Shown in pieces: positions 1-13,470 of a stretch of 13,470 nt of DNA. The first letter of the stretch is position 1. Each line of letters begins with the position of its first letter. The stretch is from Escherichia coli (GTDB lineage Bacteria; Pseudomonadota; Gammaproteobacteria; Enterobacterales; Enterobacteriaceae). The stretch lies in the NCBI RefSeq assembly GCF_003334315.1, contig NZ_QOWR01000082.1. One strand, 5' to 3'. The position numbers and the translations under genes are program-made. Under the pieces are notes generated by a model. That model worked only from the letters and a program-made list of their open reading frames with translations. It did not search any database and was not told the DNA's origin.

Positions 1-149
1 GGTTGAGAAGCGGTGTAAGTGAACTGCAGTTGCCATGTTTTACGGCAGTGAGAGCAGAGATAGCGCTGATGTCCGGCGGTGCTTTTGCCGTTACGCACCA
101 CCCCGTCAGTAGCTGAACAGGAGGGACAGCTGATAGAAACAGAAGCCAC
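1..149 (-). CDS. insA: InsA (IS1 transposition regulator), N-terminal part; CDS runs off the window
   Basis: Minus-strand GTG at 149..147 followed by codons for [49 protein letters not shown], the known InsA N-terminus with its zinc-finger CxxC...CxxC. Not in the ORF track because it has no stop inside the window. Confidence 0.85.
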
Positions 150-204
150 TGGAGCACCTCAAAAACACCATCATACACTAAATCAGTAAGTTGGCATCAT
201 CACC
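1..204 (-). mobile_element. IS1: IS1 insertion sequence, left-end 204 bp; the element continues beyond the window start
   Basis: Reverse complement of 1..204 reads ggtgatgatgccaacttactgatttagtgtatgatggtgtttttgaggtgctccagtggcttctgtttc..., matching the IS1 terminal inverted repeat and 5' region as I recall them (one mismatch in the IR). The element boundary at 204/205 abuts yafO codon 20. Confidence 0.9.
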
Positions 205-264
205 CGCATCAAGTTCCTCTGCTGTAAGTTGCAGGCGAATAAGTTTTGTTTTGAATACCCGCAT
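205..264 (-). pseudogene. yafO: yafO (toxin of the yafN-yafO module), 5' remnant of 20 native codons interrupted by IS1
   Basis: Minus-strand ATG at 264..262, two nt after the yafN stop, encodes MRVFKTKLIRLQLTAEELDA, which matches the YafO N-terminus. The frame then enters the IS1 inverted repeat (GDDANLLI) and stops at 177..175. Confidence 0.8.
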
Positions 265-4430: not shown

Positions 4431-4928
4431 TTATGAAATGATACGCTCCCCGGCACTAAAATCCGTTACGTCCCCCGCCCAATCGATGGGATATAACCCT
4501 CGCGCGACATCGCGATGGAACGTTGAGAATGGCCAATCACTCACTTGCTTTACCCAACCATGCTTTACTGGATTTATATAAATATAATCAACATGATGCC
4601 TATAATCTTTGGTATTGCGGATGGCGTGCTCCCAAAAACGTGGTTGCCAGATATTTTTCAATCCACAAGCATGGGTAAATTGCTTTTTAATTTCCCGCCA
4701 GCGCGAGGAAAAATCATCATCGCCTTCAGGTAATGTCCAGATACAGTGCATATGCTCTGGCAAAACGACCCAGGCGTTGATTTCAAAAGGCCTGTCTCGC
4801 TTAACTTTAATAATGGCGTGACGGAGCATCTGGTACTGGGTGGTCAAGAGTTGGCTTCGACGATTGCGTAAATTCACCGTGAAAAACCAGGTTCCCCCCT
4901 TGATGTAATAACGACGATATTCAGACAT
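4431..4928 (-). CDS. rayT: RayT (YafM), REP-associated tyrosine transposase of the HuH / IS200-IS605 TnpA-like family, 165 aa
   Basis: The 165-aa ORF has the HuH motif (PEHMHCIW) and a C-terminal tyrosine region (YRHHVDYIYINPVKHGW); ATG at 4928..4926; REP clusters lie on both sides. Confidence 0.92.
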   Translation of the reverse strand: MSEYRRYYIKGGTWFFTVNLRNRRSQLLTTQYQMLRHAIIKVKRDRPFEINAWVVLPEHMHCIWTLPEGDDDFSSRWREIKKQFTHACGLKNIWQPRFWEHAIRNTKDYRHHVDYIYINPVKHGWVKQVSDWPFSTFHRDVARGLYPIDWAGDVTDFSAGERIIS

Positions 4929-12222: not shown

Positions 12223-12375
12223 GTTATTAACCTCCTAAAGCCTGGCGATAACACGATAATTTGCAAATCAGATATTTCCAATATCAGCATTTGTTATCAA
12301 TTTATTCTGCGCTAAGGCAACTGCCTGATAAGGTGTTAAAGTTATAAAACCCTTCGCATAAAGGAGTTGTACACC

Positions 12376-13146
12376 GTGCCTGGTTTGAAGATTACGCTTT
12401 TGCAGCAACCACTGGTGTGGATGGATGGTCCTGCCAACCTGCGTCATTTTGATCGTCAACTGGAAGGTATTACCGGGCGCGATGTGATCGTTCTACCGGA
12501 GATGTTTACCAGCGGCTTTGCCATGGAAGCGGCAGCTTCGTCGCTAGCACAAGATGACGTAGTGAACTGGATGACAGCTAAGGCGCAGCAGTGCAATGCG
12601 CTGATTGCAGGCAGTGTTGCATTACAAACGGAGTCTGGTTCGGTTAACCGCTTTTTGCTGGTTGAGCCGGGCGGCACGGTACATTTTTATGATAAGCGTC
12701 ATCTGTTCCGCATGGCAGATGAGCATCTACATTATAAAGCGGGCAATGCGCGAGTGATTGTGGAATGGCGCGGCTGGCGTATTTTGCCGCTGGTGTGCTA
12801 CGACTTACGTTTTCCTGTGTGGTCGCGCAATCTCAACGATTATGACCTCGCCCTGTACGTCGCCAACTGGCCTGCTCCGCGCTCTCTGCACTGGCAGGCA
12901 TTGCTGACGGCCCGCGCGATTGAGAATCAGGCGTATGTGGCGGGATGCAATCGCGTCGGCAGCGATGGCAACGGCTGCCATTATCGCGGTGACAGCCGGG
13001 TGATTAATCCGCAAGGAGAGATTATCGCTACTGCCGACGCGCATCAGGCAACGCGCATTGATGCGGAGCTGTCGATGGCAGCATTGCGGGAATATAGAGA
13101 AAAGTTTCCGGCATGGCAGGATGCGGATGAGTTTAGGTTGTGGTGA
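12376..13146 (+). CDS. yafV: YafV, nitrilase-superfamily (CN-hydrolase) omega-amidase / 2-oxoglutaramate amidase, 256 aa with GTG start
   Basis: CN-hydrolase fold with a probable catalytic triad (E in VLPEMF, K in FYDKRHLF, C in LVCYDLRFP). AAGGAG at 12361-12366 is 9 nt upstream of GTG 12376; the track ATG at 12367 directly abuts the Shine-Dalgarno and is an unlikely start. Confidence 0.88.
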   Translation: MPGLKITLLQQPLVWMDGPANLRHFDRQLEGITGRDVIVLPEMFTSGFAMEAAASSLAQDDVVNWMTAKAQQCNALIAGSVALQTESGSVNRFLLVEPGGTVHFYDKRHLFRMADEHLHYKAGNARVIVEWRGWRILPLVCYDLRFPVWSRNLNDYDLALYVANWPAPRSLHWQALLTARAIENQAYVAGCNRVGSDGNGCHYRGDSRVINPQGEIIATADAHQATRIDAELSMAALREYREKFPAWQDADEFRLW

Positions 13147-13186
13147 GTGGGGGTTGTGTTTAAGGACGGGGAGAGTCGGGGTATTA

Positions 13187-13470
13187 CTACGAAAGCCCGC
13201 TCCCCGCAAGGACTGACGCCAGGTAGTTTCTGTCCATGGCTGCTTTTCGCATCTTACGTCTTAACCCTGCCTTGAATACCTTCTCATTCGTCAAAATATT
13301 AATAGCAATGTGCCGTATCCCTGAAAATAATTCTGCTGCGTTTCCTCTTCTTATTTTGTAGTCGTCTTCATTCATTACCACGTCCAGACGCCTGTGCAGC
13401 TTATTCTCCACGTGCCAGTGGTTTCGGATTGCTGTGGCGAACTTCTCTGCGGTTAAATCAGCAGAACTGA
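13187..13470 (-). mobile_element. ISAs1-family (H-repeat-associated) transposase, C-terminal portion; the reading frame continues beyond the window end
   Basis: The minus-strand frame reads ...[93 protein letters not shown], with the HWHVENKLH...RGNAAE signature of ISAs1/H-repeat transposase C-termini. The track's 74-aa ORF is only the part after an internal GTG. Confidence 0.7.

Follow-up and report, generated by a model that had tools for sequence, protein, structure and literature searches.

An ISEc1-type H-repeat beside yafV in Escherichia coli: probably an old, immobile copy at the edge of the aspV island

The window analyzed here, a 13,470-bp stretch of Escherichia coli DNA, begins within an IS1 copy and continues with yafO (truncated), yafN, dinB, lafU/lfhA (the Flag-2 scar), rayT, yafL, dinJ-yafQ, dpaA, yafJ, gmhA, fadE, ivy and yafV. 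Beyond yafV, a transposase reading frame on the opposite strand runs into the right edge of the window. A frame cut in this way raises the question of what adjoins yafV, a gene remnant, an active insertion sequence or an older inhabitant of the locus, and of how it came to lie there. The reading we favor, with a probability of about 0.85, is that positions 13177–13470 are the 3' end of an ISEc1-type H-repeat at an old, fixed site 30 bp downstream of yafV, its gene likely full-length, the copy probably immobile and its position a landmark of an island. The features on which the analysis draws are the following:

1–204, unstranded: IS1 end, insA side, terminal 204 bp (100% identical to an IS1B end in locus L002)
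4431–4928, minus strand: rayT, REP-associated tyrosine transposase (open reading frame, and annotation of identical sequence in L002)
12376–13146, plus strand: yafV (2-oxoglutaramate amidase), a core-genome neighbor, stop codon TGA at 13144–13146 (RefSeq annotation of identical sequence in L002)
13147–13176, unstranded: 30-bp spacer from the yafV stop to the end of the insertion sequence (from the element-end placement)
13177–13470, minus strand: ISEc1-type insertion sequence (ISAs1 family, 'H-repeat'), 3' 294 bp (alignment to other ISEc1 copies)
13177–13190, unstranded: degenerate terminal inverted repeat on the transposase-stop side, CGGGGTATTACTAC (comparison with canonical ISEc1 ends)
13187–13470, minus strand: C-terminus of an ISAs1-family DDE transposase, 93 codons and stop, the gene being cut by the window edge (translation and NF033564 match)

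The transposase fragment and its element

The minus-strand frame is open from a stop codon at 13187–13189 to the window edge at 13470 and encodes 93 residues ending in ...LAGSGLS*; the gene is convergent with yafV. An earlier note on this DNA had described a transposase C-terminus of the ISAs1/H-repeat type, encoded opposite to yafV after a 40-bp gap and running off the window. Both observations were borne out: the gap occupies 13147–13186, between the yafV TGA and the transposase stop codon, and the fragment scored 72.5 bits (E = 3.3e-20) against NF033564 (transpos_ISAs1), the NCBIfam equivalog model 'ISAs1 family transposase', which has a curated cut-off of 70 bits. The alignment covers the last 59 positions (256–314) of the 314-position profile, i.e., its C-terminal end. 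When the full-length copy at the yafV site of E. coli C was searched, the same model returned 407.6 bits (E = 3.2e-122), and both Pfam domains, DDE_Tnp_1_assoc and DDE_Tnp_1, were found. In addition, the 20 matches listed for window positions 13100–13470 are 100% identical to it and annotated as 'ISAs1 family transposase' next to yafV. The profile match, above the model's cut-off, and the identity to widely annotated DNA together show that the frame is not a chance one lacking a family signature, an outcome that the earlier note had named as grounds for abandoning its assignment, and the predicted product is an ISAs1-family DDE transposase. The HW-VEN motif would have a catalytic role in the transposase. 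A search of 12900–13470 for other functions gave no Rfam match at E ≤ 1, no terminator-like site and a single, weak promoter-like site.

The extent and identity of the element were read from its paralogues. The ISEc1 H-repeats of RhsE (ydcC) and RhsB (yhhI), annotated as 'ISAs1-like element ISEc1', have shared ends that define an element of 1291 bp, and this length and the 378-codon transposase are common to both and to the complete copies at the yafV site. Alignment with ydcC and yhhI, at 96–97% identity, begins at the base that corresponds to window position 13188; the canonical end of these copies is another 11 bp outward, and the element end was accordingly placed at 13177. Over 1280 bp the copy at the yafV site is 96.5–97.2% identical to ydcC and yhhI, with 33–36 differences in the 1137-bp coding sequence, and the part inside the window differs from other ISEc1 copies at 9–10 of 284 nt. 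The reference for these identities was the set of RefSeq genes labelled ISEc1, not the ISfinder entry. Insertion sequences that share at least 90% nucleotide identity are usually regarded as isoforms, and the values obtained exceed this level, which makes the copy an isoform of ISEc1. A complete copy would reach about position 14467, where it would end in GTGATCTTTCCCTG, with its ATG at about 14323. Members of the ISAs1 family carry one transposase ORF within about 1.2–1.3 kb, and genomes that agree fully with the window where the two overlap have a 1291-bp element with a 1137-bp ORF; of this element, the window contains 294 bp.

The founding member of the family, ISAs1 of Aeromonas salmonicida, shares the NF033564 family with the window transposase and was reportedly defined by observed transposition. 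H-repeats, for their part, are filed as insertion sequences although transposition of H-rpt has not been observed (PMC3032704). A literature match to 'ISEc1' in PMC10711316 was discarded, as the element named there is actually ISEc12.

The canonical ISEc1 ends, CAGGGCAAGATTAC and CAGGGAAAGATCAC, match each other at 12 of 14 positions; in canonical copies the match to the partner end is 11–12/14, and both ydcC and yhhI match the canonical end at 14/14. The window end, CGGGGTATTACTAC, matches the canonical end at only 9/14 and its own partner, which lies beyond the window and was read in relatives, at 8/14. The versions of the yafV-side end in O104:H4 and D3, CGGGGTAAGACTAC, are less decayed (11/14). 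The matching terminal inverted repeats by which ISAs1 members are recognized are thus lacking at the window end, which bears on mobility and not on descent from ISEc1. No target-site duplication surrounds the copy in E. coli C, whose flanks gacggggagagt and cccctgcgctca contain no repeat, and none is present at the ydcC and yhhI copies either. A candidate terminal repeat at 13165–13178, GGACGGGGAGAGTC, was dropped because the ydcC and yhhI copies give the true ends.

The site beside yafV and the aspV island

The same yafV/element junction was recovered in K-12, E. coli C, O104:H4, D3, Nissle 1917 and JCM 5491, and the first five of these also have the decayed terminal repeat there. The earlier note had proposed comparing the junction across E. 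coli genomes; this comparison located it in 2893 of 5426 complete genomes, distant lineages included. The strains compared presumably belong to phylogroups A, B1, B2 and E. Together with the decayed end and the missing target duplication, the sharing of the junction by distant lineages indicates an old, fixed copy.

What lies beyond the element differs strongly between strains. In O104:H4, the strain whose flank was read furthest, yafV is followed by an ISEc1-type copy with a stop at codon 18, an ISEc26-type copy, ydcD, an RHS core gene, VgrG, Hcp and a tss cluster towards aspV; here it is the Rhs toxin gene that closes the aspV type VI secretion cluster. The order in D3 and WS1933D is yafV, ISEc1-type copy, 'RHS element protein dsORF-h1', RHS core and VgrG, and in O157:H7 it is yafV, ISEc26, ydcD and RHS. 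In all four strains an ISAs1-family element thus stands directly after an Rhs toxin gene and a small downstream gene. At the other extreme, the site is empty in ST131, where the tRNA-Asp gene aspV lies 98 bp from yafV, and Nissle 1917 carries another island beside the decayed junction. The yafV-aspV interval of E. coli C, 2017.04.03CC, ET5 and K-12 contains no Rhs gene. The DNA to the right of yafV thus varies widely, from an empty site (ST131) to a full island (O104:H4).

An H-repeat is recognized by its place immediately behind an Rhs core gene and the small immunity ORF that follows it. The copy at the same junction occupies this place in O104:H4, D3 and WS1933D, and no Rhs gene neighbors it in the window's lineage, so the window copy is best described as an orphaned H-repeat. 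This sets it apart from ydcC and yhhI, which lie beside Rhs genes and do not have its decayed end (14/14 against 9/14). Read in this comparative context, the window element is, by its predicted origin, the H-repeat tail of an Rhs element closing the aspV secretion island. The Rhs and secretion genes would have been deleted in the window's lineage, leaving the ISEc1 copy orphaned beside yafV, where it would serve as a landmark for where the aspV island ends on the yafV side. The genome paper on E. coli W describes an Rhs element of this strain in the region b0215–b0221 that K-12, B and Crooks lack (PMC3032704), and a type VI secretion island of EHEC has been reported at aspV (PMC5363993).

O157:H7 offers a parallel case. 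It shares the yafV spacer up to 13172 and then continues with different DNA and ISEc26, an element of the same family and orientation as the window copy and in the same place at the Rhs-element tail beside yafV, but with about 67% nucleotide identity to it, at a distance of 117 bp from yafV and with a canonical-looking end, CAGGGCAAGAG. The ISEc1-type copy of O104:H4 is located between yafV and a 3'-truncated ISEc26-type copy. When O104:H4 (L007, 21918 onward) is set against O157:H7 (L008, 6546 onward), the ISEc1-type copy stands in place of the spacer and the initial ~100 bp of the ISEc26-type copy, an arrangement that looks as if ISEc1 had inserted into the 3' part of ISEc26 and about 170 bp had then been lost.

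The empty site of ST131 also gives an indication of where the variable DNA begins. Similarity between ST131 (L009, 6334–6347) and the window ends at 13133, and its yafV ends in DEFTFR*, compared with DEFRLW* in the window (13134–13146). The last four yafV codons consequently differ, and the boundary of the variable island would then fall within the yafV 3' terminus. Read as a degenerate 3' end of tRNA-Asp, i.e., an attachment-site repeat, the spacer offers only a 7-base match, GGACGGG, found by eye. Nine bases shared by the ST131 yafV end and the K-12 aspV flank were set aside, being inverted in orientation and consistent with chance.

Divergence was next compared between copies and their flanks. 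The A-type (L001, 6088–7224) and B1-type (L007, 20640–21776) copies at the yafV site differ with a dS of 0.135, about three times that of the flanking genes yafV (0.049), fadE (0.052) and lpcA (0.031). Moreover, the copy is about equally far from its paralogues and from its positional counterpart (34–43 differences in 1137 bp). The excess of dS over the flanks, combined with these paralogue-like distances, suggests that paralogous H-repeats have exchanged sequence with this copy through homologous recombination, that is, gene conversion. Rhs and H-rpt sequences are classically viewed as portable homology, which fits this pattern. With a median of 4–5 ISEc1-related places per genome, the copy may act as a block of repeated DNA that recombines with its paralogues. 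Past the intact element end in E. coli C (L001, 7530–7611), a direct repeat of 37 nt (92% identity) and a further GTGATCTTTCCCTG represent fragments of a second H-repeat 5' end, probably left behind by a former tandem H-repeat.

A further influence on the interval comes from IS1. In each of four group-A strains it has a position of its own, either within the ISEc1 copy or to its right (L002 20289; L013 19268; L001 8013–8028; L014 3013–3020), and a different part of yafU, ykfM or yafT is missing in each. This points to IS1 insertion with adjacent deletion as a process eroding the yafV-side interval, which would trim the aspV island differently from strain to strain.

Intact gene, remnant or mobile element

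The earlier note had called the transposase frame a remnant. Because the gene is cut by the window edge, with its upstream 843 bp and the other terminal repeat outside, its status as a remnant is not readable from the window, and the identical complete genomes that were inspected do not bear the description out. E. coli C, 2017.04.03CC and ET5 carry an intact 1137-bp gene of 378 codons at this site, free of internal stops, and the last 284 nt of the window show 0 differences from their copies; the identity of 2017.04.03CC extends across the entire 13.2 kb outside IS1, and that of ET5 is given as 100.0% over three pieces. A junction between IS1 and yafO like that of the window occurs in one piece in 0 of the 5426 complete E. 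coli genomes, and the sequence to the right of 13470 is therefore extrapolated from these identical relatives. On this comparison the gene in the window's own genome most likely continues to its full 378 codons.

The natural counterexample is K-12 MG1655, where the annotated pseudogene yafF (b4503) occupies the same place behind the same yafV junction and is 100% identical over window positions 12301–13467. It retains only 291 bp of the element (13177–13467) and breaks from the window at 13467/13468, jumping to yafU DNA, CATAGAATTT..., so that its next three bases are CAT; the last three bases of the window, TGA, are those of the intact element's continuation, TGATATAAT..., and not the CAT of K-12. 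EcoGene and UniProt describe yafF as an 'H repeat-associated protein' fragment. Zhao et al. 1993 (J Bacteriol 175:2799) are said to have reported a defective H-rpt at min 5 of K-12, and the map position of yafF, 239 kb or about 5.15 min, fits that location. A literature search for 'yafF' returned nothing relevant. The window ends only 3 bases past the yafF breakpoint, which may be a coincidence or may reflect an assembly contig stopping at a branch of the repeat graph.

A truncation of the gene to the right of 13470 through some deletion, IS1-associated or not, comparable to K-12 yafF or PSS-04, appears unlikely. Truncated versions do exist at the site, and they make such an event conceivable: the K-12-type truncation junction was found in 374 of 5426 genomes, an IS1 copy sits inside the transposase gene of PSS-04 with a breakpoint at about 13378, and Nissle 1917 and JCM 5491 have an internal deletion in the element; at least one IS1 insertion of the source genome, that in yafO, is itself unusual. 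Against this, the window passes both known group-A breakpoints, about 13378 and 13467, its last 3 nt match the intact element, and the gene is intact in the inspected genomes with 100% identity over 13.2 kb. A near-complete element, defined as at least 80% of the unit formed by 640 bp of yafV and the whole element in one place, is moreover present at the yafV site of about 3130 of the 5426 genomes. An intact gene might in turn be read as an active insertion sequence recently transposed next to yafV in the source strain, and the 378-codon ORF with both Pfam domains in close relatives, together with low dN/dS relative to the paralogues, speaks in its favor. We regard this as highly improbable given the identical junction in distant lineages, the degenerate terminal repeat, the lack of a target duplication and the literature statement that H-rpt movement has not been observed (PMC3032704). 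With one degenerate terminal repeat and no target duplication, the copy is probably unable to transpose by itself.

An immobile copy with an intact ORF could also be one that is kept for a role at the level of the host, acting in trans on other H-repeats or promoting gain and loss of Rhs toxin tips and the aspV secretion island. The intact frame and a dN/dS of about 0.1 relative to all other copies, despite the decayed end, would agree with this idea, and they would also fit a still-functional transposase. Gene conversion, to which the threefold dS excess points, is a simpler reading of the same pattern, with dN/dS between copies of 0.05–0.10, and the stop at codon 18 in the O104:H4-type (B1-type) copy also counts against a host role, which we consider improbable. 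The old, fixed and probably immobile H-repeat thus stays the preferred reading.

Mobile DNA in the window and the meaning of the element

The wider claim of the earlier note was that three unrelated mobile families occur in the window, which is bracketed by mobile DNA, and that this setting also hosted the Flag-2 deletion. All three families were found, namely IS1 (1–204), rayT (4431–4928) and ISAs1. The IS1 end abuts yafO 60 bp after its start (window 1–264), so that the gene of the YafO toxin is destroyed and the antitoxin gene yafN remains intact. No evidence supports the tie to Flag-2: the scar lies about 9–11 kb from the ISEc1 copy in lfhA/lafU, with conserved core genes in between, and published work traces the deletion to direct repeats within lfhA and lafU that recombined (PMC6993521). 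As for the bracketing, the IS1 and ISAs1 elements at the two ends are real, but their place at the ends may only reflect how the window was cut. It is possible, if not the likelier case, that the bracketing is a product of the cut, e.g., of a short-read contig breaking at multicopy repeats, rather than a property of the locus. Both ends of the window lie inside multicopy repeats (per-genome medians of 11 for IS1 and 4 for ISEc1), and the odd size of 13470 bp and an IS1/yafO junction unseen in complete genomes fit a draft contig. The retained repeat lengths differ, at 204 bp and 294 bp, which is at odds with such an origin, and the ISEc1 copy at yafV is real in complete genomes whatever the cut.

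The feature itself is already known: it is the standard RefSeq 'ISAs1 family transposase' next to yafV, annotated in thousands of E. coli genomes, and in that sense an ordinary element whose K-12 counterpart is a named pseudogene, yafF. Its importance is small beyond correct annotation, for which the edge of a sequence window is not to be taken for a gene truncation. The correction is one of context, since the element is to be read as the orphaned tail of the aspV island with its Rhs element and type VI secretion genes. As such, it would mark the yafV-side edge of a segment of the E. coli genome that ranges from absent in ST131 to tens of kilobases in O104:H4, O157:H7 and Nissle 1917.
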